64,000 nt of DNA from Heterodontus francisci (taxonomy: Eukaryota), in NCBI RefSeq assembly GCF_036365525.1, contig NC_090397.1:69693781-69757780 (forward strand). The letters are read 5' to 3'. The stretch's first letter is position 1. Every line of letters begins with the position of its first letter. Below the pieces are notes generated by a model. That model was given only the letters and a program-made list of their open reading frames with translations, was not told the DNA's origin and did not search any database. A program made the position numbers and the translations under genes. Positions 6,991-64,000 of the stretch are shown in pieces.

Positions 6991-9900
6991 AGAGTCATAG
7001 AGTTATACAGCACAGAAACAGGCCCTTCAGCCCATCATGTCTGTGCTGGCCATCCAGCACCTAACTATTCTAATCCCATATTCCAGCACTTGGCCCATAG
7101 CCTTGTATGTTATGGCGTTTCAAGTGCTCATCTAAATACTTCTTAAATGTTGTGAGGGTTCCTGCCTCTACAACCTCTTCAGGCAGCGCGTTCTAGATTC
7201 CAACCACCCGCTGGGCGATAAAATCTTTCCTCAAATCCCCCCTAAACCTCCTGCCCCTTATCCTAAATCTATGCTCCCTGGTTATTGACCCCTCCGCTAA
7301 GGGAAAAAGTTTCTTCCTATCTAACCTATCAATGCCCCTCATAATCTTGTACTCTCAATCATGTCCCCCCTCAGCCTTCTCTGCTCCAAGGAAAACAACC
7401 CTAGCCTTTTCAGTCCCTCTTCATAGCTGAAATGCTCCAGCCCAGGCAACATCCTGGTGAATCTCATCTGCACCCTCTCCAGTGCAATCACATCCTTCCT
7501 ATAGTGTGGTGACCAGAACTGTACACAGTATTCCAGCTGTGGCCTAACTAGCATTTTATACAGCTCCATCATAACCTCCCTGCTCTTATATTCTATGCCT
7601 CGGCTAAAAAAGGCAAGTATCCCATATGCCTTCCTAACCACCTTATCTACCTGTGCTGCTGCCTTCAGTGATCTGTGGACAAGTACACCAAGGTCCCTCT
7701 GACCTTCTGTTCTTCCCAGGGCCCCATCATCCATTGTATATTCCCTTGCCTTGTTAGTCCTCCCAAAATGCATCACCTCACACTTCTCAGGATTAAATTC
7801 CATTTGCCACTGCTCCGCCCATCTTCCCAGCCCATCTATATCTCCCTGTAATCTAAGGATTTCCTCCTCACTATTTACAACACCACCAATTTTCATGTCA
7901 TCTGCAAACTTACTGATCATACCTCCTATATTCATGTCTAAATCATTCAAGTACACTACAAACAGCAAGGGTCCCAGCACCGATCCCTGTGGGACACCAC
8001 TGGTCATAGGCTTCCAATCGCAAAAACAGCCCTCGACCATTACCCTCTACCTCCTGCCACTAAGCCAATGTTGGATCCAATTTGCCAAATTGCCCTTGAT
8101 CCCATGGGCTCTTGGTTCTTAACCAATCAGCCATGTGAAACCTTATCAAAAGCCTTACTGAAATCCATGTATACTACATCTACTGCTTTACCCTCATCTA
8201 CACATCTAGTCACCTCCTCAAAAAATTCAATCAAGTTAGTTAGACACAGTCTCCCCTGACAAAGCCATGCTGACTATCCCTGATTAATCCCTGCCTCTCC
8301 AAGTGGAGATTAATCCTGTCCCTCAGAAGTTTTTCCAATATTTTCCCAACCACTGATGTTAGACTCACCGGCCTGTAATTACCTGGTTTATCCCTGCTAC
8401 CCTTCTTGAATAATGGTACCACATTTGCTGTCCTTCAGTCCTCTGGTGCCTCGCCTGTGGCCAGAGAGGATTTGAAAATTTGTGTCACAGCCCCTGCTAT
8501 CTCCTCCCTTGCCTCACATAACAGCCTGGGATATATCTCATCTGGGCTTGTGGATTTATCCACTTTTAAGCCTGCTAAAACAGCTAATACTTCCTCCCTT
8601 TCAATGCTAATATGTTCAAGTATATCACAATCCCCCTCCCTGATCTCTACACCTACATCATCCTTCTCCATAGTGAACACAGATGAAAAGTAATTATTTA
8701 AAACCTCACCTATGTCCTCTGGCTCCACACACAGATTGCCACTTTGGTCCCTAATGGGCCCGATTCTTTCCCTGGTTATCCTCTTACCTTTAATATACTT
8801 ATAAAACACCTTAGGATTTTCCTTTATCTTGCCCGCCAGTGTTTTTTCATGTCCCTTCTTCACTCTCTTAATTACTTTTTTAAGTGCCACCCTACACTTT
8901 CTACACTCCTCTCGGGCCTCCGCTGTTTTCAGCGCTCGGGATCTGCCATAAGCCTCCTTTTTTTTCCTGATCCAATCCTCTATATCCCTTGACATCCAGG
9001 GTTCCCTGGGCCTGTTAGTCCTTCCCTTCACCTTAACAGGTACATGTTGGCTCGGAACTCTCACTATTTCCTCTTTGAATGACTCCCACTGATGTGATGT
9101 AGACTTTCCTACAGGTAGCTGCTCCCCGTCCACTTTGGCCAGATTCTGTTTTATCATATTCAAATCGCCTTCCCCTAATTCAGTACCTTTATTTCTGGTC
9201 TATCTTTGTTCTTTTCCAGAACTACCTTAAATCTTAGAGTTATGGTCACCATCCACGAAATGCTTCCCCACTGACACTTCTACCACTTGACCGGCTTCAT
9301 TCCCTAGGATTAGGTCCAGTACTGCCCCTTCTCTTGTAGGGCTTTCTGCATACTGACTCAAAAAGCTTTCCTGTATGCATTTTTAGAATTCCGCCCCCTT
9401 TAAACCTTTTGCACTAAGACTATCCCAGTTGATATTGGGGAAGTTGAAATCCCCTACTATTATTACCCTATTATTTTTACACCTCTCTGAGATTTGCCTA
9501 CATATCTGCTCCTCTATCTCTTCCTGACTGTTTGGAGGCCTGCAGTACACACCCAGCCAAGTGATTGCCCCCTTTTTGTTTGTTTTTAAGTTCTACCCAT
9601 ATGGCCTCATTTGAGGAACCTTCTCAGATATCATCCCTCCTTACTGCAGTAATTGACTCCTTGATCAACAGTGCAATGCCACCTCCTCTTTTACCCCCCC
9701 ACCCCCCTGCCATGCCTGAAGATTCTATACCCTGGAATATTGAGCTGCCAGTCCTGTCCCTCCCTCAACCATGTCTCTGTGATCGCAATAATATCATAAT
9801 CCCATGTGCTAATCAACGCCCTCAATTCATCTGCCTTACTGGAAGAAAGACTCCTTGCATTGAAACAGACGCAATCCAACCTTGCATTTTTCACTTGTGC

Positions 9901-12044: not shown

Positions 12045-13320
12045 AGAATATGCAGCATCGAAACAGGCCATTCAGTCCAGGCCAGTGTTCATGATCCACT
12101 CAAGTCTCCTCCCATCTTTCCACATCTATCTTGATCCCTCTATTCCCTTCTCCCTCATATGTTTATCTAGTTTCCCCTTAAATACATCAGTACCATTCAA
12201 TCCAACCACTCCCTGTGGGAGTGAGTTCCACATTCTCACTCCCTGTGGGAGTGAGTTCCACATTCTCACTCTCTGTGGGAGTGAGTTCCACATTCTCACT
12301 CCCTGTGGGAGTGAGTTCCACATTCTCACTCTCTGTGGGAGTGAGTTCCACATTCTCACTCTCTGTGGGAGTGAGTTCCACATTCTCACTCTCTGTGGGA
12401 GTGAGTTCCACATTCTCACTCCCTGTGGGAGTGAGTTCCACATTCTCACTCCCTGTGGGAGTGAGTTCCACATTCTCACTCCCTGTGGGAGTGAGTTCCA
12501 CATTCTCACTCTCTGTGGGAGTGAGTTCCACATTCTCACTCTCTGTGGGAGTGAGTTCCACATTCTCACTCCCTGTGGGAGTGAGTTCCACATTCTCACT
12601 CTCTGTGGGAGTGAGTTCCACATTCTCACTCCCTGTGGGAGTGAGTTCCACATTCTCACTCTCTGTGGGAGTGAGTTCCACATTCTCACTCCCTGTGGGA
12701 GTGAGTTCCACATTCTCACTCTCTGTGGGAGTGAGTTCCACATTCTCACTCCCTGTGGGAGTGAGTTCCACATTCTCACTCCCTGTGGGAGTGAGTTCCA
12801 CATTCTCACTCTCTGTGGGAGTGAGTTCCACATTCTCACTCCCTGTGGGAGTGAGTTCCACATTCTCACTCCCTGTGGGAGTGAGTTCCACATTCTCACG
12901 CCCTGTGGGAGTGAGTTCCACATTCTCACTCTCTGTGGGAGTGAGTTCCACATTCTCACTCCCTGTGGGAGTGAGTTCCACATTCTCACTCTCTGTGGGA
13001 GTGAGTTCCACATTCTCACTCTCTGTGTAAAGACCTTTCTTCCGAATTCTCAATGTGATTTCTTGGTGACTATTTTATATTGATGACCTCGAGTTTTGCT
13101 CTTCCCCACAGGTGGAAAATCCTCTCCTTATCTACTCTATCAAAACCTTTCATAATTTTAAAGACCTCCATTAGGTCACCCCTCTGCCTTCTCTTTTCAA
13201 GAGAAAACAGACCCAACCTGCTCATCCTTCCCTGATAGGTATAACCTCGCAGTTCTGGTATCAAGGTTGTAGATCTTTTTTGCACCCTCTCCAGTACCTC
13301 TATATCCTTTTTATAAAATG
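12045..13320 (-). mobile_element. CR1 LINE 3' fragment hosting a tandem array
   Basis: ORF 13070..13285 reads RLGLFSLEKRRQRGDLMEVFKIMKG. The array is a repeated CR1 motif (QRVRMWNSLP) followed by FKGKLDKHM. Confidence 0.88.
12211..13027. repeat. 30-bp minisatellite, 27 copies, two interspersed variants
   Basis: Unit C[C/T]CTGTGGGAGTGAGTTCCACATTCTCACT: 15 C-type and 12 T-type copies, plus one further substitution at 12900. Confidence 0.98.
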
Positions 13321-26012: not shown

Positions 26013-28127
26013 AACTTTTTTTTTAATCATTCAGGGATGTGGGCGTCGCTGGCTAGGCCAGGATTTATTGCCCATCCCTAATTGCCCTTAAGAAGGTGGT
26101 GGTGAGCTGCCTTCTTGAACCGCTGCAGTCCATGTGGGGTAGGTACACCCACAGTGCTGTTAGGAAGGGAGTTCCAGAATTTTGATCCAGCGACAGTGAA
26201 GGAACGGCGATATAGTTCCAAGTCAGGATGGTGTGTGACTTGGAGGGGAATCTGCAGGTGGTGGTGTTCCCATGCATTTGCTGCCCTTGTCCTTCTAGTT
26301 GGTAGAGGTCACGGGTTTGGAAGGTGCTGTCTAAGGAGCATTGGTGCATTGCTGCAGTGCATCTTGTAGATGGTACACACTGCTGCCACTGTGCGTCGGT
26401 GGTGGAGGGAGTGAATGTTTGTAGATGGGGTGCCAATCAAGCGAGCTGCTTTGTCCTGGATGGTGTTCAGCTTCTTGAGTTTTGTTGGAGTTGCACCCAT
26501 CCAGGCAAGTGGAGAGTATTCCATCACACTCCTGACTTGTGCCTTGTAGATAGTGGACAGGCTTTGGGGAGTCAGGAGGTGAGTTACTCGTTACAGAATT
26601 CCTAGCCTCTGACCGGCAAGTTCTGGAGCACAGGTCTTCAGTACTATTGCCGGAATATTGTCAGGGCCCATAGCTTCTGCAGTATCCAGTGCCTTCAGTC
26701 GTTTCTTGATATCACGCGGAGTGAATCGAATTGGCTGAAGTCTAGCATCTGTGATGCTGGGGACTTCAGGAGGAGGCCGAGATGGATCATCAACTCGGCA
26801 CTTCTGGCTGAAGATTGTTGCAAATGCTTCAGCCTTATCTTTTGCACTGATGTGCTGGGCTCCCCCATCATTGAGGATGGGGATATTTGTGGAGCCACCT
26901 CCTCCAGTTAGTTGTCTAATTGTCCACCACCATTCACGGCTGGATGTGGCAGGACTGCAGAGCTTAGATCTGATCCGTTGGTTATGGGATTGCTTAGCTC
27001 TGTCTATCGCATGCTGCTTACGCAGTTTGGCATGCAGATAGTCCTGTGTTGTAGCTTCACCAGGTTGACACCTCATTTTGAGGTATGCCTGGTGCTGCTC
27101 CTGGCATGCCCTCCTGCACTTTTCATTGAACCAGGGTTGGTCTCCTGGCTGGATGGTAATGGTAGAGTGGGGGATATGCCGGGCCATGAGGTTACAGATT
27201 GTGGTTGAGTACAATTCTGCTGCTGCTGATGGCCCACAGCACCTCATGGATGCCCAGTTTTGCATTGCTAGATCTGTTCGAAATCTATCCCATTTAGCAC
27301 GGTGGTAGTGCCACACAACACGATGGAGGGTATCCTCAATGTGAAGGCGGGACTTCGTCTCCACAAGGACTGTGCGGTGGTAACCCCTACCAATACTGTC
27401 ATGGACAGAAGCATCTGCGGCAGGCATATTGGTGAGGACGAGGTCAAGTATGTTTTTCCCTCGTATTGGTTCCCTCACCACCTGCCGCAGAACCAGTCTA
27501 GCAGCTATGTCCTTTCGAACTTGGCCAGCTCTGTCAGTAGTGGTGCTACCGAGTCACTCTTGGTGATGGACATTGAAGTTCCCCACCCAGAGTACATTTT
27601 GTGCCCTTGCCACCCTCAGTGCTTCCTCCAAGTGGTGTTCAACATGGAGGAGTACTGAATCATCAGCTGAGGGAGGGCGGTAGGTGGTAATCAGTAGGAT
27701 TAAGTTGCCCAAGTTTGACCTGATGCCATGAGACTTCATGGGGTCCGGAGTCGATGTTGAGGACTCCCAGGGCAACTCCCTCCCTACTGTATACCACTGT
27801 GCCACCACCTCTGGTGGGTCTGTCCTGCCGGTGGGACAGGACATACCCGGGGATGGTGATGACAGTGTCTGGGACATTGTCTGTAAGGTATGATTCCGTG
27901 AGCATGACTGTGTCAGGCTGTTGCTTGACTAGTCTGTGGGACAGCTCTCCCCACTTTGGCACAAGCCCCCAGATGTTAGTAAGGAGGGCTTTGCAGGGTC
28001 GACAGGGCTGGGTTTGCCGTTGTCGTTTCTGGTGCCTAGTTCGATGCCGGGTGGTCCGTCCGGTTTCATTCCTTTTTATTGACTTCGTAGCAGTTAGGTA
28101 CAACTGAGTGGCTTGCTCAGCCAACTT
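26013..28127 (-). mobile_element. Family-B LINE with endonuclease domain and an internal deletion of the RT core
   Basis: EN motifs NIWGL, LTESYL, DRPTRGGG, YRPPS, GNFNVH and LDLVLTN. The junction LKTCAPELA|GQRLGIL at ~26613 skips the RT. The 3'UTR is present. Confidence 0.9.
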
Positions 28128-40129: not shown

Positions 40130-41700
40130 TTTTTAAAAAATTCATTCACAGGATGTGGGCGTCACTGGCTAGCCCAGCATTTATTGCCCATCCCTAATTG
40201 CCCTTGAGAAGGTGGTGGTGAGCTGCCTTCTTGAACCACTGCAGTCCATTTGGGGTAGGTATACCCACAGTGCTGTTAGGAAGGGAGTTCCAGGATTTTG
40301 ATCCAGCGACAGTGAATGAACAGTGATATAGTTCCAAGTCAGGATGGCGTGTGACTTGGAGGGGAACTTGCAGTTGGTGGTGTTCCCATGTATTTGCTGC
40401 CCTTGTCCTTCTAGTTGGTAGAGGTCGCGAGTTTGGAAGGTGCTGTCGAAGGAGCCTTGGTGCATTGTTGCAGTGCATCTTGTAAATGGTACACACTGCT
40501 GCCACTGTGCGTCGATAATGGAGGGAGTGAATGTTTAAGGGGCTGGATCGGGTGCCAATCAAGTGGCTGCTTTGTCCTGGGTGGAGCTTCTTACTGGAAT
40601 TGCACTCATCCAGGCAAGTGGAGAGTATTCCATCACACTCCTGACTTGTGCCTCGTGGACAGGCACTGGGGAGTCAGGAGGTGAGTTACTTGCCGCAGAA
40701 TTCCCATCCTCTGACCTGCTCTTGTAGCCACAGTAGTTATATGGCTACTCCAGTTCAGTTTCTGATCAATGGTAACCCCAACAACTCTGGTACATATCTT
40801 TGAGGATTCAGACTGGTCCAGTTAAGTTTCTGGTCAATGGTGACCCCCTCACCCCACCCCAGGATGTTGTTGGTGGGAGGAATTCAATGATGGTAATGCT
40901 GTTGAATGTCAAGGGGAAATGGTTAGATTCTCTTCTGTTGGAGATGGTCACTGTCTGGCATTCGTATGGTGCGAATGTTACTTGCCTCTTATCAGCCTAA
41001 GCCTGGATGTTGTCCAAGTCTTTTTTTTTTTAGAATTAGAACATTACAGCGCAGTACAGGCCCTTCGGCCCTCGATGTTGCGCCGACCTGTGAAACCATC
41101 TGACCTACACTATTCCATTTTCATCCATATGTCTATCCAATGACCACTTAAATGCCCTTAAAGTTGGCGAGTCTACTACTGTTGCAGGCAGGGCATTCCA
41201 CGCCACTACTACTCTCTGTGTAAAGAAACTACCTCTAACATCTGTCCTATATCTATCACCCCTCAACTTAAAGCTATGTCCCCTCGTGTTTGCCATCACC
41301 ATCCGAGGAAAAAGACTCTCACTATCCACCCTATCCAACCCTCTGATTATCTTATATGTCTCTATTAAGTCACCTCTCCTCCTCCTTCTCTCCAACGAAA
41401 ACAACCTCAAGTCCCTCAGCCTTTCCTCGTATTGCTGCATGCAGGCATGAACTGCTTCACTATCTGAGGAACAATCGGTGAATATCCCCACTTCTGACCT
41501 TATGATGGAGGGAAGGTCATTGATCACACAGCTGAAGATGGTTGGGCCTAGAACACTGCCCTGAGAAACTCCTGCAGCAATGTCCTGGGGCTGAGACAAT
41601 TGACCTCCCAACAACCATCTTCCTTTATCCCAGGTATGACACCAACCAGTGGAGAGTTTTCCTCTGGTTCCCACTGACTTCAATTTTACCAGAGCCAGAC
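40130..41700 (-). mobile_element. Family-B LINE 3' portion, interrupted by a CR1
   Basis: GVSQGSVLGPTIFSCVINDL, HSLHYRRTVAAV and 3'UTR. Confidence 0.88.
41030..41430 (-). mobile_element. Young CR1 3' fragment nested in the family-B LINE
   Basis: YEERLRDLRLFSLERRRRRGDLIETYKII..WNALP is uninterrupted. Confidence 0.9.
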
Positions 41701-41892
41701 GATCTAATTCACCTTTATAAGATGCATAATATAAAGTCTGCTGGCATTCACAACCTGGAACACAATATTTCACATTTTTATATACTGATGTAGGACATTT
41801 TAATGAAAATATTGCAAGATATCTACCAAATAAGAAGTATTTTTGTGCCTGTGATTGTTCTGATGGCACTATCAATTATGTCATGTCAATTA

Positions 41893-51711: not shown

Positions 51712-52812
51712 CTCTTTTGGGCCTCCTTATCTCGAGAGACAATGGGTAAGCGCCTGGAGGTGGTCAGTGGTTTGTGAAGCAGCGCCTGGAGTGGCTATCA
51801 AGGCCAATTCTAGAGTGACAGGCTCTTCCACAGGTGCTGCAGAGAAATTTGTTTGTCGGGGCTGTTACACAGTTGGCTCTCCCCTTGCGCCTCTGTCTTT
51901 TTTCCTGCCAACTGCTAAGTCTCTTCGACTCGCCACTCTTTAGCCCCGTCTTTATGGCTGCCCGCCAGCTCTGGCGAACGCTGGCAACTGACTCCCACGA
52001 CTTGTGATCAATGTCACAGGATTTCATGTCACGTTTGCAGACGTCTTTAAAGCGGAGACATGGACGGCCGGTGGGTCTGATACCAGTGGCGAGCTCGCTG
52101 TACAATGTGTCTTTGGGGATCCTGCCATCTTCCATGCGGCTCACATGGCCAAGCCATCTCAAGCGCCGCTGACTCAGTAGTGTGTACAAGCTGGGGATGT
52201 TGGCCGCCTCGAGGACTTCTGTGTTGGAGATACGGTCCTGCCACCTGATGCCAAGTATTCTCCGGAGGCAGCGAAGATGGAATGAATTGAGACGTCGCTC
52301 TTGGCTGACATATGTTGTCCAGGCCTCACTGCCATAGAGCAAGGTACTGAGGACACAGGCCTGATACACTCGGACTTTTGTGTTCCGTGTCAGTGCGCCA
52401 TTTTCCCACACTCTCTTGGCCAGTCTGGACATAGCAGTGGAAGCCTTACCCATGCGCTTGTTGATTTCTGCATCTAGAGACAGGTCACTGGTGAGAGTTG
52501 AGCCTAGGTAGGTGAACTCTTGAACCACTTCCAGAGCGTGGTCGCCAATATTGATGGATGGAGCATTTCTGACGTCCTGCCCCATGATGTTCGTTTTCTT
52601 GAGGCTGATGGTTAGGCCAAATTCATTGCAGGCAGCCGCAAACCTGTCGATGAGACTCTGCAGGCACTCTTCAGTGTGAGATGTTAAAGCAGCATCGTCA
52701 GCAAAGAGGAGTTCCCTGATGAGGACTTTCCGTACTTTGGACTTTGCTCTTAGACGGGCAAGGTTGAACAACCTGCCCCCTGATCTTGTGTGGAGGAAAA
52801 TTCCTTCTTCAT
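51712..52812 (-). mobile_element. RTE-clade (BovB-like) LINE, 5'-truncated, with an open reading frame
   Basis: 351-aa ORF with GRLFNLARL, LLFADDAAL, FTYLGS, LLYGSEAWT, RLRWLGHV and a C-terminal CSTC..H..H finger. Confidence 0.93.
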
Positions 52813-53499
52813 ATAACAAACAAATGTAATATCTGGGGACCTGTGTAGAAACACTGAACTAGTGTGGCATCAAAACGGGTTCTTAATATTGCTAAAAGTA
52901 AACATTACCGGGAAAAAAATACTAACTAATAACTTGCGTGCTATCGTAGCCATAGAGTTAAATGGGGTATAGTTCAGGAGGGGAAAAGTCAAACACATTT
53001 GCATCAGACCTAACCTTTTACTACAATTCTTCTCATGAAACTAAGACAGCCTTGAAGGATAGAGTGAAAAAATCACATAATGGCATTAATTCTTTTTATA
53101 AAATACAAATAACTGCAGGTGACACAATTCAGATCAAAAAGACAGCGTGGAAATTGGTTGAAAGCAAACTAAAGCTCTTATGTGTTCACAGTTGCTGATG
53201 GCCTCACTCACTCACTCAACACTAGATCTCCCACCACGTCTAATTTTTGACCAGCTTGCTGGACCATCACTAGGCACACCAACTAGGAAATCTAACTTGC
53301 TACTGGGGTTCTACTACTGGTCTGTATTTAAAAAGGGATCTAAAGAGGTGATTCAGAGAAATATTTTCACCCAGAGAGTTGTCAGGATCTGGAATGCTCT
53401 AACCGAAAAGGTGGTGGAAGCTGATTCCATAAATAATTTAAAGAAGGGAGTTTGGACAGGTAATGGAGGATGAGGAATTTACAGAGCTGAGTTTCAGGT

Positions 53500-58980: not shown

Positions 58981-60787
58981 TGTATTGGGTTTATTTTATA
59001 AGGGACAATATTCCACAGTTCACTAACACTGGGGAAATATTAATTGATTCTGTGGACAAAGTTCTTTCTTAAATCTGAATATTAATAGTTGGAACAAAAT
59101 AAATGTTTTTTTTCTGCTTAGACATGAAGCAATGTTGGCTTGATGTACTTCCCACTGTTTTAGGTTCTCCCACCTTCAATGAAGTCCTAAAGTTTGCAGG
59201 GGAGGAAGTGGAAACATCAAATTATAGTCTGTAAAATAGTGCCCTCTTCTACTGTTGGGTGACACGATGAAGGTGAAGGCTTGGATTGATTGAGCCGAAT
59301 GTAGTGTGATGGAATATAGGTATAATAGGCTTGATTAAGTAGAGTTTGGAAATAGTTAGCGTGTAATGCCTTTAGAGTTAAAGATTGGACAAATGGTTAG
59401 TTTTCAGAGTTCACTGAAGTTCCCCTTTAAGAAGTTAGAAAATATCAAGGTCCCTGTTATGAACAAGTTGGGAAATCCATTTGTGTCTCTGTTGCCTGGG
59501 GCTTGGAAGATAAAAAAAGAACATTGAAATATCCTGTCAGTAAGAGGTAGCAACAAACTTAATTGGTTTGTTCAGACAGGCCAGTTCTGGAGGTTGATTT
59601 GGAGTGCCATAGAAAGGGCAATTAACAATAAACGGAATGTACTCACAGGAACAAGAGAGGTCAAGTAAACACAATTACAAACATTTTGACCAGGTAAAAG
59701 CTCACAACTTCAAATTCCAGTAAAATATTAAATTAAAGATATGGATTTTAAAAGGAACACAGGAAGGTCACATCCAATGCAAAAGTCATACGACACCTTA
59801 GAAATAATATAAATAGAAGGTTTTGAAGCACTTAGGATTGTTGAATCCTCAACAACACTTCTCATCCTATGCCTTATTTAGTGATTTAAGGTACAAGTTT
59901 ACTTTAAATTTTGATGGATATTCTGGATATTCTAAGATAACTTTGCTGTAACATTAGCAAGGTTAAACTTTTGGATTTTATGTTAGAAATACGAATATGT
60001 GTTTTATCTCTCAGTAATATTTGATATCGTGATATATGTATCCAATTAAGAAGTTTATTACATGTTAAATTCCTTAATAAATATATAAAAGGGCGGCACA
60101 GTGGCGCAGTGGTTAGCACCGCAGCCTCACAGCTCCAGCGGCCCGGGTTCAATTCTGGGTACTGCCTGTGTGGAGTTTGCAAGTTCTCCCTGTGTCTGCG
60201 TGGGTTTTCTCCAGGTGCTCCAGTTTCCTCCCACAAGCCAAAAGACTTGCAGGTTGGTAGGTAAATTGACCATTGTAAAATTGCCCCTAGTATAGGTAGG
60301 TGGTGGGGAAATATAGGGACAGGCGGGGATGTGTTAGGAATAGGGGATTAGTGTAGGATTAGTGTAAATGGGTGGTTGATGGTCGGCACAGACTCGGTGG
60401 GCCGAAGGGCCTGTTTCAGTGCTGTATCTCTAAACTAAACTAAACTAACTAAACTAAATCGTTTCATGTAGTATTCTGCATACAACTACAAGAACCCCCT
60501 CTCTGTGTCTCTTTAAGTGGAGAGATACGTATTGAAGAGAGTTTCCCAGACCCTTATAATATCTGGGATATTTATGACTTAGCCGTAAAATATTAGAAAT
60601 AGGCTATCCAAAAGATGGTAAAATTCTCTGTATGTTTTCTTTCTTTGAGGGAAAGCTAGTGCAGTTCTTTGGACCCAAATAAGTGTCTGAGAATCTGTTT
60701 GGTTTGAATTTGATTAAAGGAGATTCGTAGGGATGTGCTCCTGATTTGGTTTAGTCCTACAAGGGGTTAAAGTCATAAATCACTTCA
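58981..60787 (+). mobile_element. Putative 5' LTR of a foamy-like endogenous retrovirus (~1.44 kb without the inserted SINE)
   Basis: Ends CA (60786-60787), then a 2-nt spacer and a PBS. TATATAA at 60082-60088, donor-like ATG|GTAAAT at 60615-60623, ATTAAA at 60713-60718, several hairpins downstream of the TATA. The left boundary (TG at 58981) abuts a CR1 and is uncertain. Confidence 0.6.
60091..60458 (+). mobile_element. tRNA-derived V-SINE/HE1-like SINE inserted in the ERV LTR
   Basis: GGGCGGCACAGTGGCGCAGTGGTTAGC head, V-domain-like GTGGGTTT..CCAGGTGCTCCAGTTTCCTCCCAC, CR1-like tail and (TAAAC)n end. Confidence 0.9.
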
Positions 60788-60789
60788 GT

Positions 60790-60809
60790 TGGCACCCAAA
60801 AACATGGTC
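60790..60809 (+). promoter_or_regulatory. Primer-binding site, tRNA-Lys-like (degenerate)
   Basis: CA-GT-TGGCACCCAAAAACATGGTC compared with tRNA-Lys PBS TGGCGCCCGAACAGGGAC or TGGCGCCCAAC. Differences include CpG decay and an A-run expansion. It lies ~290 nt before the gag ATG. Confidence 0.7.
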
Positions 60810-61083
60810 TTGTTGTTAACAGAATCCTGTACTTATATGTTCGTCTTTAAGGTATATTTTAGATTTGTAAGTACGGAAGGAATGTTTTCTGTCAGTGGTA
60901 TTAAGGCCCTGATTTAAAAATCTAGAGACGGCAAACTCTTGATCATGGTTTGTGGATCTTAAATCAGAACTCCCTCATTCTACTTTTGAGGTTTGGAAAT
61001 TTCCTTTACAGTTCACTTTAAATCCTAGTTGAAATTAGGTCCTGACGTATCTTAATTCCTAGTTTATGTTCCGTTCCGATATA

Positions 61084-62646
61084 ATGGCTAATGAAGAAGG
61101 GATTGGCTTAATTTTTCCGTTGGGTGATCCATCAACTTGTTTTAGTAGATTACAGAATCCCATTTCGCTGCCTCAGGCGGATCAGATGGTAGTCTTTGAG
61201 ATTGATAATTTTGATGCTGATGGTTCAGTTAGAGCTCATGGTACAATTGTGTACTGACCCCCAGGAGGATGGGATAGCATGTATTCAGTGGGATAATCAG
61301 ACTGATACCCCAGACCCACAATATTCCGTAATGATAATGTGCACGCCTGCACAATTGGGTGGCCTAATGACTGGTCACGACAGGGTGGGGGTATCCATGG
61401 TAGAACTGTAAGTCCTGGGTCTCCCTATGTGTGTGGTGGCAGTGGGTCTCGGATTAGATGGCTTCCTCACAATGAGGTTCATGATCAGAATTTGCGGGAG
61501 GATTGTAGACAGCTACTGGTACATCACCTTCAAATGAAACAGGCACCTCTCCAGGCTTTTGCTACTGCTGGTGCTGCAGGCTTTCCTCTGTCTGTGGGAC
61601 AGTCAGTGCAGTCTCAAATTACACCCTTAGGCAATGTGAATCTTAACTCTATATATGCCACGTGTGGCAAGCCCAGTCCCAGTAATCAAGATAAAACAAG
61701 GTGGATTTTACATAACCTTGATAGACTTGACACTTGTTGTCACAGCTGGAGTGCTGCACATTTACGGCAGCTCCTCTCCATGATGTTAAACTCTGATCAC
61801 GTCTCCCCAATTAATAAGTGCAACAGCTGGATACAAATATATTCCCACCTCCAGACCACAACTCAGGGAGGGCATGTAATGGGCTCAATCAAAGAAATCC
61901 TTCAATATACTGTTAGGTCGAATGGTTTGGTAGCCGCCTATCGACTAGGTAAGGACTTTACACATGGCAACTGGGAAATTGCTCACGGCTGTCTGGCTAA
62001 CCAGTATCAATGGCTAACCGCTTAGACTAGCCTGCGAAGGAGCTTTGTCTGCTTATCCTGATGACCAGCAGAGGTGGGATCATGTTGAACACATTATCCA
62101 CTTGAACCATGCCTTGCTGGATCTACCCCATACTAAGCCTGCGGTCCAACCGGATCCTAAGGTTAAAAATAATACAAACAATGTCTCTGTTTCATACAGA
62201 CAGGGACAGATTAGGACAAGGACTCCTTCTCATTCCAGTTACCCACAATTGGTTCCTTTGGGCCCCCAGACGGGCGCTCTGGTCGGTCTACACCGCCATC
62301 TCGCCGGGAGCGCAAGCGGCATATTTCCCCAGAACGGTGGGAACGGTCTAGCATCACACATCGCAGAGATAGCAGGGTTAACTGGGATCCCTATGGGGAT
62401 GAACTTTACACTGGCCATTCCTATCACAGAGTAATGGGAGCTTCCAGGGCTGACAGAGGCAGGGATCAGAAAGACTCCCAACAGGATCGGCATCCAGCCC
62501 AAGGGGGTGACTGTAAGCCTTCTGATAGAACACCTAAGAGATCGGGAAAGCATGAGACTCCTAAGAGGAAGGGGCAGACTTCAGTTAAAGTCATCAGAAA
62601 TCAAGGCAGGGCTGACAGTCAGGACTCAGAAGCATCTCCACAGTGA
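61084..62646 (+). pseudogene. gag: Foamy-virus-type gag pseudogene (several frameshifts and stops)
   Basis: ATG in context ATAATGG. Capsid-like segments SIYATCGKP..W.LHN, CNSW, QGGHVMGSIKEILQYTVRSNGLVAAYRLG..NWEIAHG and DDQQRW resemble prototype foamy Gag as recalled (HIRSVTGEP..W.GRN, CLTW, HGTFPMHQLGNVIKGIVDQEGVATAYTLG..NYQLVSG, DDQTRA). The tail is Arg/Gly/Ser-rich with no CCHC knuckle. Confidence 0.85.
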
Positions 62647-63220
62647 AGGGCTGGCACCCAACCAGGATCTCTTGAATTCCCCTATGCCCTGGCAACACTG
62701 CACACTGCTGATCAGGTACAGGCACTCTTTGATACAGGAGCTGATTACTCAGTCATGGATCCTGTAATTATAAAATCTCAGTGGTCAGATTTGGGAAGCC
62801 CACTTTATCAGTTATCATTAGGGGGATTTACACAGTGTAAGGTACAGCGGATTGCCTTTTATACAATTCCTGTTACTATTTATTGTATTACAGCCACCCT
62901 GGAGGTGGGTCTAGTACCTGATTTGATTTTCCCTCTTATTATAGGACAGCCTGATATTAAATACTTCCTTAAGATCATGTCCAGGCCTGTGCAGGCATCC
63001 ACAGACCAGGATGACCGACAGAGATATATTCAGGAACAACTAGACTACACCTGCCGAGAGGGGGGTGATAAGGGTTTTTTGGAACAGCTCCTAAACAAGT
63101 ACTACCCTTATCTACAGCGTCATCCGAATCAATGTGGCAAGGTAGATATGGAATCTCACTCTCTTGATGCAGGCTGGAACAAGCCCAGGAAACAATGGCC
63201 TATTCAGGATCATAAAGCAA
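62647..63220 (+). pseudogene. pol: Foamy-like pol 5' part: aspartic protease and RT N-terminus, cut by a CR1 insertion
   Basis: VQALFDTGADYSV (D-T-G at 62731-62739) and LIIGQP. LEQLLNKYYPYLQRHPNQCGKVDMESHSLDAGWNKPRKQWPIQDHKA resembles foamy Pol as recalled (LKTLFVKYDNLWQHWENQVGHRKIRPHNIATGDYPPRPQKQYPINPKA). Confidence 0.88.
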
Positions 63221-64000
63221 ACATAAGAACTAGGAGCAGGAGTAGGCAATTCAGCCCCTCGGGCCTGCTCCGCCATTCAATACGATCATGGCTGATCTCA
63301 TCTTGGCCTCAACTCCACTTTCCTGCCCGTTCTCCATAACCCTTCAACCCATTTCTAATTAAAAATTTGTCTCTCTCCTCCTTAAATTTACTCAATGTCC
63401 TGGCATCCACTGCGCTCTGGGGTAGTGAATTCCACAGAGTCACGACCCTTTGAGAGAAGTAATTTCTCCTCATCTCTGTTTTAAATCTGCTACCTCTTAT
63501 CCTAAAACTATGACCTCTCGTTCTAGATTGTCCCACCAGAGGAAACATCCTCTCTACGCCTACTTTGTTAATCCCCTTAATCATCTTATATACCTCAATT
63601 ATCTCCTTTCATTCTTCTAAACTCTAGAGAGTAAAGGCCTAAACTGCTCAATCTCTCTTCATAAGACAAACCCCTCATCTCTGGAATCAATCGAGTGAAC
63701 TTCCTCTGAACTGCCTCCAATGTAACTACATCCCTCCTCAAGTAAGGGGACCAAAACCGTACGCAATACTCTAGGTGCGCTCTCACTAATGCCTTATTCA
63801 GTTGCAGCAACACCTCCCTACTTTTATACTCTATTCCTTTAGCAATAAATGCCAAAATTCCATTTGCCTTCCTTATTACCTGCTGCACCTGCATACTAGT
63901 TTTCTGCGATTCATGCATGAGGACACCCAGATCCCTCTGCACCGAAGCACTCTGAAGTTTCTCTCCATTTAGATAATAATTTGCCTTTCTATTCTTCCGA
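63221..64000 (-). mobile_element. CR1 LINE 3' portion inserted into the ERV pol
   Basis: ORFs 63595..63942 and 63309..63584 encode the CR1 RT C-terminus (LEYCVRFWSP, RRNYFSQRVV..WNSLP). The 3' tail lies at ~63221. Confidence 0.92.

Follow-up and report, generated by a model that had tools for sequence, protein, structure and literature searches.

The 64,000-nt window analysed here (the whole stretch of Heterodontus francisci contig NC_090397.1 from position 69,693,781 to 69,757,780, forward strand) contains a provirus that is complete from one long terminal repeat (LTR) to the other, starting at window position 59305 and ending about 5.9 kb beyond the window end. This copy is referred to as the window provirus, and its relatives in the same genome (6.0 Gb) as the endogenous retrovirus (ERV) family. 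Taken as a whole, the results make it fairly probable that the window provirus is a dead member of the foamy lineage placed outside the mammalian foamy viruses, that its family spread first without env and then without reverse transcriptase (RT), and that its Pol was made by readthrough from Gag. The foamy affinity had been proposed in a first-pass annotation made from the letters alone, in which the remainder of the provirus, the copy number, the shared losses in RT and env and the arrangement of gag, stop and pol in one frame were missed.

Foamy affinity of the window provirus

The assignment to the foamy lineage is supported, at the level of sequence, by Gag, RT, integrase (IN), the Env of sister copies and two phylogenetic trees. 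The RT frame of a sister copy scored 212 bits against the protease-RT region of prototype foamy virus (PFV), compared to 78 against Ty3 and 59 against murine leukaemia virus, and the IN of the window provirus itself scored 141 bits against PFV and 26 against Ty3. When RT was compared to 1.84 billion representatives, the best match over a single stretch was the Pol of feline foamy virus (FFV; 44% identical), which was outscored by a 2,671-aa protein only through the addition of three stretches at 28%; an initial search for homologues of the RT piece had produced four proteins only, three of them named as teleost. The downstream part of pol could be aligned by tblastn to residues 384-1091 of PFV Pol and matched Pfam rve (E = 1.6e-6), while the protease piece remained below the cut-off for both RVP (E = 0.043) and Spuma_A9PTase (E = 0.0026).

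The gag gene (61084..62646, + strand, ending in TGA) spans 1,563 nt, or about 521 codons, and is broken by stops and frameshifts into at least four frame pieces, much as first described (a broken gag of about 520 codons with its ATG at 61084). The piece at 61306-62022 matched Pfam Gag_FV_central (PF20672) with 33.2 bits (E = 4.8e-8; cut-off 30), a profile that was above cut-off in three other copies of the family as well. Its sole sequence match in PDB was foamy Gag 5m1h (E = 0.42), and the top three matches in a capsid fold search, done with a low-confidence predicted model, were PFV capsid (E = 1.6e-3 to 1.8e-2). The foamy capsid segment recognised in the first-pass annotation was thereby recovered, as was the Arg/Gly-rich tail without a zinc knuckle: the last 143 residues of Gag include 21 Arg, 13 Gly and 1 Cys, and no CCHC pattern. 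The suggested likeness of the N-terminal part to the foamy Gag N-domain was neither shown nor excluded. No match to that domain was obtained with the Gag N-terminus in Pfam, atlas or homologue profile searches, and models of the N-terminus (pLDDT, the predicted local confidence score, about 40), consisting of strands followed by a long helix, gave a best Z of 3.6; the foamy N-domain was not among the structural matches listed, which excludes nothing.

Only remnants of env are kept in the window provirus. At all 47 loci scored, Foamy_virus_ENV (PF03408) was over the cut-off, and several of these loci are located downstream of an IN of the ERV family, that is, in sister copies; a hydrophobic Env leader segment was present in the three copies read. 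The ends of the provirus also correspond to those of foamy viruses. A 4-bp target-site duplication at 59301..59304 (+ strand) is repeated, with identical bases, directly after the 3' LTR (L021:7207-7210, where L021 is a stretch of the locus that reaches beyond the window end), and 4-bp duplications were found in six further copies for which both ends were available (three exact, three with one mismatch). Two nucleotides lie between U5 and the primer-binding site (PBS) and none between the polypurine tract (PPT) and U3. Foamy integration has been described as giving a 4-bp duplication, with the U5 end trimmed by 2 nt and the U3 end untrimmed (PMC9728412, PMC3185757), and the window provirus matches both the duplication and the asymmetry.

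Trees were built from RT (41 rows) and from RNase H-IN (26 rows, with three references left out). In the RT tree the ERV family grouped with the mammalian foamy viruses, a catshark fragment and protein P0008 (support 80/80; 98/88 once a salamander protein was included), and teleost elements, a second catshark protein and Callorhinchus fell apart from this clade. The RNase H-IN tree gave a foamy clade including the ERV family (100/98), within which the mammalian foamy viruses formed a group of their own (100/99) with the ERV family outside it. The deep-branching position claimed at first is consequently backed by the RNase H-IN tree, while the RT tree gave no resolution of the depth of the family relative to the mammalian foamy viruses; that both trees were made without coelacanth, tuatara, lokiretrovirus and published shark foamy references weighs against the placement. 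Neither RT nor IN grouped with Ty3/Gypsy elements, by score or in either tree. One other protein in the RNase H-IN tree, P0195 (1,156 aa, a complete foamy Pol with 60% identity to FFV in the scored region), was located on a separate branch within the mammalian foamy group, and is possibly from an undescribed foamy virus.

The gag-pol junction

In the window provirus, gag and pro-pol are separated by an in-frame stop (62644..62646, + strand), and the protease (DTG at 62731) and the RT leader follow in the frame of the gag end (62647..63217, + strand), with no in-frame ATG before the DTG. The same arrangement, with gag and pro-pol sharing a frame and a single stop between them, was found in 29 out of 36 distinct copies (28 TGA and one TAA), in none of which an ATG occurred between the gag stop and the catalytic Asp of the protease; of the remaining seven copies, six had local indels at the junction and one was without the stop. 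Canonical foamy viruses have a pol AUG of its own in a frame other than that of gag. Because pol in the ERV family lacks such an AUG and is located in the gag frame, the family is here classed with the foamy lineage of ERVs but kept apart from the canonical spumaviruses.

Pol was probably produced by readthrough of the UGA as a Gag-Pol fusion, from which it would then have been freed by the protease. This would differ from the mammalian foamy viruses, for which Pol is described as started separately from a spliced RNA (PMC3185757, PMC3196705) and pol as lying in a frame different from gag (PMC8278194). PFV is reported to replicate with an engineered Gag-Pol fusion (PMC3196705), and the Xenopus element XtERV-S to hold gag-TGA-pol in a single frame (PMC8278194). 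In P0008, the near relative of the ERV family, gag and pol form one uninterrupted frame. This protein (1,687 aa, on a 10,956-nt contig) has a Pol that clusters with foamy viruses near the ERV family and a Gag for which no Pfam match was found, and it may derive from a young element of the foamy lineage in which Gag and Pol are naturally fused.

Two other accounts of this junction were weighed. A canonical foamy expression, with separate Pol translated from a spliced RNA and started at a non-AUG codon (CTG) or at a start supplied by splicing, appears unlikely. Several observations speak for it, and against readthrough: a branch-point and pyrimidine-like stretch upstream of the stop ends in an AG immediately 5' of it; an in-frame CTG with a purine at -3 and G at +4 is located downstream, 14 codons upstream of the catalytic Asp; a spliced pol mRNA is what mammalian foamy viruses are described as using (PMC3185757); and in 28 copies no RNA fold after the stop was stabler than shuffled sequences (z -1.0 to +2.0, pseudoknots being outside the model), so that no readthrough structure was detected. 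However, the putative acceptor AG is AA in six of the 29 copies, a synonymous change, and this variation speaks against a required splice acceptor; the position of pol in the gag frame right behind the stop would be a coincidence; and P0008 is a fused Gag-Pol. A Phe-Pro before the protease, in the ERV family as in P0008, resembles a cleavage site and counts against separate expression too. That the element is not foamy at all, being instead a Ty3/Gypsy element, a class III ERV of the ERV-S/L type, a teleost-type foamy-like ERV or a lokiretrovirus, is highly improbable. The in-frame gag-TGA-pol as in XtERV-S, the DTG protease and the absence of long accessory genes would all fit such an identity, but the RT and IN scores and both trees favour the foamy viruses, and the foamy Gag and Env profiles were above cut-off. 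Lokiretroviruses form an RT clade that is sister to all other retroviruses, and the grouping of the ERV family with foamy viruses at 100/98 (in an RNase H-IN tree with no identified lokiretrovirus reference) argues against such an identity. The gag and env of teleost foamy-like elements are described as having no detectable homology to known ones (PMC5210030).

Deletion series, copy number and age

Compared to env-complete sister copies, the window provirus is missing about 0.6 kb of RT, corresponding to fingers and palm, and two parts of env (about 0.96 kb and about 1.6 kb). A minus-strand CR1 long interspersed element (LINE) follows position 63217, and the first-pass annotation had expected RT to be recovered beyond the CR1. 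RT is not simply interrupted by it, however: the catalytic core is missing, both in the window provirus and in its subfamily. The RT deletion has an imperfect 18-nt repeat on either side, and the pol frame continues across it in all four copies read, one of them carrying a stop at this point. Its junction occurs in three or more variants among 19 copies, and both edges in the window provirus agree with the common deletion within 8 nt. The first env deletion is bounded by 8-nt repeats and is immediately followed by a stop in the env frame. Bounding of the deletions by splice sites was considered and rejected, the junctions showing direct microhomology; an origin of the family without env was likewise discarded once env-complete sisters had been found.

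All copy numbers are pattern counts and hence lower bounds. At least 2,589 LTR ends of the ERV family were present in the genome, together with at least 93 RT-bearing and at least 19 RT-deleted junctions (112 in total), and at least 35 env-complete and at least 55 env-deleted junctions. The family comprises over 110 proviruses, and these counts suggest that most of its LTRs are solo. A form that carried env and measured about 11 kb came into the germ line; it is outnumbered by a derivative in which env was knocked out. RT-core-less forms arose at the 18-nt imperfect repeat, all those assessable on the env-deleted background, and the window provirus is one of these RT-core-less, env-deleted forms. 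No whole pol or env frame was found among the copies scored, the longest open frame reaching 517 residues in the 150 IN matches listed and 499 residues in the 47 env matches.

Env-complete and env-deleted copies were split at 98/84 in a tree of IN from 36 copies (6 of 42 were dropped), which was star-like with end branches near 0.05. The net divergence in pol between the two groups was mostly synonymous (nonsynonymous, pN, 0.001-0.008; synonymous, pS, 0.023-0.044), and therefore the env-less line seems to have continued using its own pol. Such a form would have multiplied within the cell by retrotransposition on its own Gag and Pol; an Env-deficient PFV is described as retrotransposing intracellularly, under artificial conditions and not in all foamy viruses (PMC3185757). 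Nine copies share the second env junction of the window provirus, and all seven that could be assessed are without RT (background 19/112), which argues for a non-autonomous master copied in trans. The window provirus belongs to a six-member RT-less clade in the IN tree (87/75), and its closest full-length U3 matches are RT-less copies; one line seems to have expanded while lacking RT. Helper Gag and Pol would have copied at least one master devoid of RT and env, which had retained the cis regions of foamy vectors, namely the 5' leader with the start of gag, the 3' part of pol, the PPT and the LTRs (regions required by foamy vectors are listed in PMC3185757). The RT and env deletions probably result from template jumps in the course of reverse transcription, given the microhomology at the junctions, and the RT jump would have happened more than once: the deletion probably recurred, because at least three junction variants exist and the RT-less copies are scattered in the tree.

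That scatter is one of several results that weigh against copying in trans, and it enters into a different explanation in which the RT-less copies, the window provirus included, were independent accidents (jumps at a hot spot, or loss caused by CR1) and were never recopied. We regard this as improbable. In its favour, RT-less rows are dispersed over the best IN tree, with six changes (monophyly was not rejected; approximately unbiased test, p-AU 0.35) and weak inner support; there are the at least three variants among 19 junctions, and many RT-less copies may be one-off deletions. In the window provirus, moreover, CR1 sits exactly at the RT-deletion junction, and at this locus taken alone CR1 could have caused the loss of RT. 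The CR1 tail resembles the target sequence at the junction, a resemblance that may account for the coincidence. The seven out of seven RT-less copies with the env junction of the window provirus, its nearest U3 matches, the six-member clade and the agreement of both deletion edges with the common deletion all point the other way. Somewhat less improbable, but still not favoured, is that all copies result from repeated infection by an exogenous swarm, with defective genomes packaged by env-bearing helpers and no intracellular retrotransposition. The single dated env-complete LTR pair (0.069) falls within the env-deleted range, U3 is highly variable among copies, and intracellular retrotransposition is described as not universal in foamy viruses (PMC3185757), all of which would suit a swarm. 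It is opposed by the excess of env-deleted over env-complete junctions (55 versus 35) and by the purifying selection on pol along the branch separating the two groups. The favoured account is further weakened by synonymous differences in the env remnant between the groups, with a net pS of about 0.10 relative to 0.03 in pol (4 of 31 copies were dropped from the env pN/pS analysis), which may reflect recombination instead of simple decay.

The 5' and 3' LTRs of the window provirus differed by a Kimura two-parameter distance (K2P) of 0.046 in U3 and 0.036 in R-U5, and LTR-pair divergence was 0.039-0.083 in nine of ten other pairs and 0.129 in one (11 loci with one LTR or none in the stretch were excluded, and one further pair gave no value). 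At a rate of 0.5e-9 per year, as has been applied to a catshark (PMC10699275), the insertion proposed for dating in the first-pass annotation would be about 36-46 million years old and the burst about 40-80 million years old, ages that depend on the rate; the mutation rate described for the epaulette shark, 7e-10 per generation (PMC10587355), would push the age of the window provirus back. Among copies, R-U5 and pol were about 80-92% identical and U3 (window 59305-60090) 65-87%, env-complete copies aligning at its ends only. The U3 variation is read, from these alignments, as apparent fast promoter turnover during the burst.

Remaining features of the locus and known relatives

Once two host insertions are subtracted, the window provirus is about 8.05 kb long. 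The 5' LTR (TG...CA, first bases TGTG) occupies 59305..60787 (+ strand). It had been drawn from 58981, and its start was moved to 59305, where homology to other copies begins, directly after the target-site duplication. The length once seen as a foamy feature turned out to be an artefact of a host short interspersed element (SINE), an insertion after integration at 60091..60454 (364 nt, + strand, repeat families D4/D5) that occurs four times in the window and is found neither in the 3' LTR nor in other copies; about 1,120 nt remain without it, a real length of about 1.1 kb. A TATA-like box is located at approximately 60082-60089 (+ strand). The LTR is followed by a GT dinucleotide and the PBS (60788..60807, + strand, PBS from 60790), which is complementary to host tRNA-Lys(CTT), in accordance with the Lys primer, CA-GT and PBS first annotated and with the tRNA-Lys1,2 primer of foamy viruses. 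Pairing extends over 10 + 5 bases flanking a bulge of three A (19 copies, with CpG decay), and the host tRNA 3' ends matching the PBS were typed Lys-CTT at six out of six loci. Primer sites are as a rule copied anew from the tRNA, yet the bulge persists in most of the 19 copies, and no host tRNA gene carrying the bulged variant was found among 65 matches.

The CR1 fragment (about 2.2 kb, - strand) covers 63218..64000 and continues beyond the window (L021:499-2701). Extension past it, as had been suggested, recovered the rest of the provirus outside the window, all on the + strand: the remainder of pol, broken, with RT thumb, RNase H and IN (L021:2702-5030); an env remnant (L021:5031-6114; 1.08 kb including the two shared deletions, a 300-nt tail and the PPT); and a 3' LTR of 1,092 nt (L021:6115-7206). 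As a possible counterpart of the central PPT that foamy viruses have in IN, an 11-nt purine run near the end of IN was present in four of five copies scanned; it differs from the 3' PPT, and such runs are frequent. The interval between env and LTR (about 300 nt) is too short for genes the size of tas or bet, and a short gene is possible; ATG frames of 40-70 residues were present in this interval in 9 of 31 copies, five of which share one start, and gave no informative Pfam match.

Elsewhere in the window, no further piece of the ERV family was found in positions 1-59000, and no Rfam match was obtained in the window as a whole. At 12207-13027, a 30-nt unit repeated in tandem (27 copies, 97% identity) has apparently expanded within a CR1 3' region. 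Open frames of 235-364 residues at 7339-9199, 26591-27553, 41105-41875 and 51764-52858 presumably represent CR1-like and RTE-like LINE fragments, and no host gene was evident among window frames of at least 200 residues. In another part of the genome (G000:C34:12635519-12772686), more than 50 tRNA-Lys(CTT)-type 3' ends are arranged in tandem, mostly about 2.15 kb apart.

With the mammalian foamy viruses (PFV, FFV, and the bovine and equine viruses BFV and EFV) the ERV family shares the capsid domain, the absence of a Cys-His box, IN, the Env family, an RT with 44% identity to that of FFV, the Lys primer, the 4-bp duplication and the asymmetric ends. It differs from them in having pol in the gag frame without an ATG of its own, a DTG protease, a short interval of about 300 nt from env to LTR that holds no frames the size of tas or bet, and thousands of germ-line LTRs with env-less and RT-less subfamilies. 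ERV-Spuma-Spu of tuatara and CoeEFV of coelacanth, compared here by description only, are also high-copy endogenous foamy viruses and differ from the ERV family in host; re-integration has been proposed for the former, whose description mentions an accessory gene as not found (PMC6669660), and two putative accessory frames for the latter (PMC3386198). Other foamy-like ERVs of fish have been described, namely CmiFLERV of elephant shark, ERV-Spuma.0-Sca of catshark and the foamy-like ERVs (FLERVs) of teleosts (PMC5512871, PMC10699275); unlike the ERV family, these group with frog or teleost elements, and Callorhinchus and teleost proteins were outside the ERV-family clade here, the best being 36-38% identical in RT. 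XtERV-S, a class III element, resembles the ERV family in its single gag-TGA-pol frame and in lacking a zinc finger, but its env is of the gamma type, and it has been characterised as not especially similar to foamy viruses (PMC8278194); Xenopus Pol was outside the foamy clade in both the RT and RNase H-IN trees.

Foamy-like ERVs of cartilaginous fish have thus already been published, and the novelty is in the architecture and the gag-pol arrangement. Wang, Chen and Cui reportedly described, in 2023 (J Virol 97:e01816-22), a cartilaginous-fish endogenous foamy virus (CFEFV) that roots the vertebrate foamy ERVs; their study reportedly includes both sharks and rays and distinguishes more than one lineage in Scyliorhinus torazame. 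That virus is the probable closest match of the ERV family. One S. torazame protein was in the foamy clade of the RT tree (partial, its position within the clade not resolved) and one grouped with teleost elements, a split that fits several lineages in this species. Another protein of this species, P0049, is annotated as PRDM11 and its gene model fuses a piece of foamy RT with a PR/SET-domain protein; a misannotation across an intronic provirus is the most likely explanation. A literature search of titles and abstract beginnings brought up no account of such elements in which gag, a stop and pol share a frame or in which a subfamily lacks RT, a scope that does not establish absence from print.

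In textbooks, foamy viruses are told apart by a Pol that is expressed separately. We tentatively suggest, at somewhat less than even confidence, that the earliest-branching foamy viruses may have produced Pol fused to Gag, through readthrough of a UGA, that separate Pol arose later, toward the foamy viruses of land vertebrates, and that the lineage also yielded a natural RT-less, env-less element copied in trans. If true, the combination of foamy Gag, Env and integration ends with an in-frame gag-stop-pol would date separate Pol as derived, and the order of foamy innovations could be tested by way of one junction across the endogenous foamy viruses of fish, amphibians and reptiles. Foamy germ-line entry has been described as rare (PMC3386198). 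The ERV family would show, within one genome, the passage from an enveloped virus to an env-less retrotransposon and on to an RT-less parasite.

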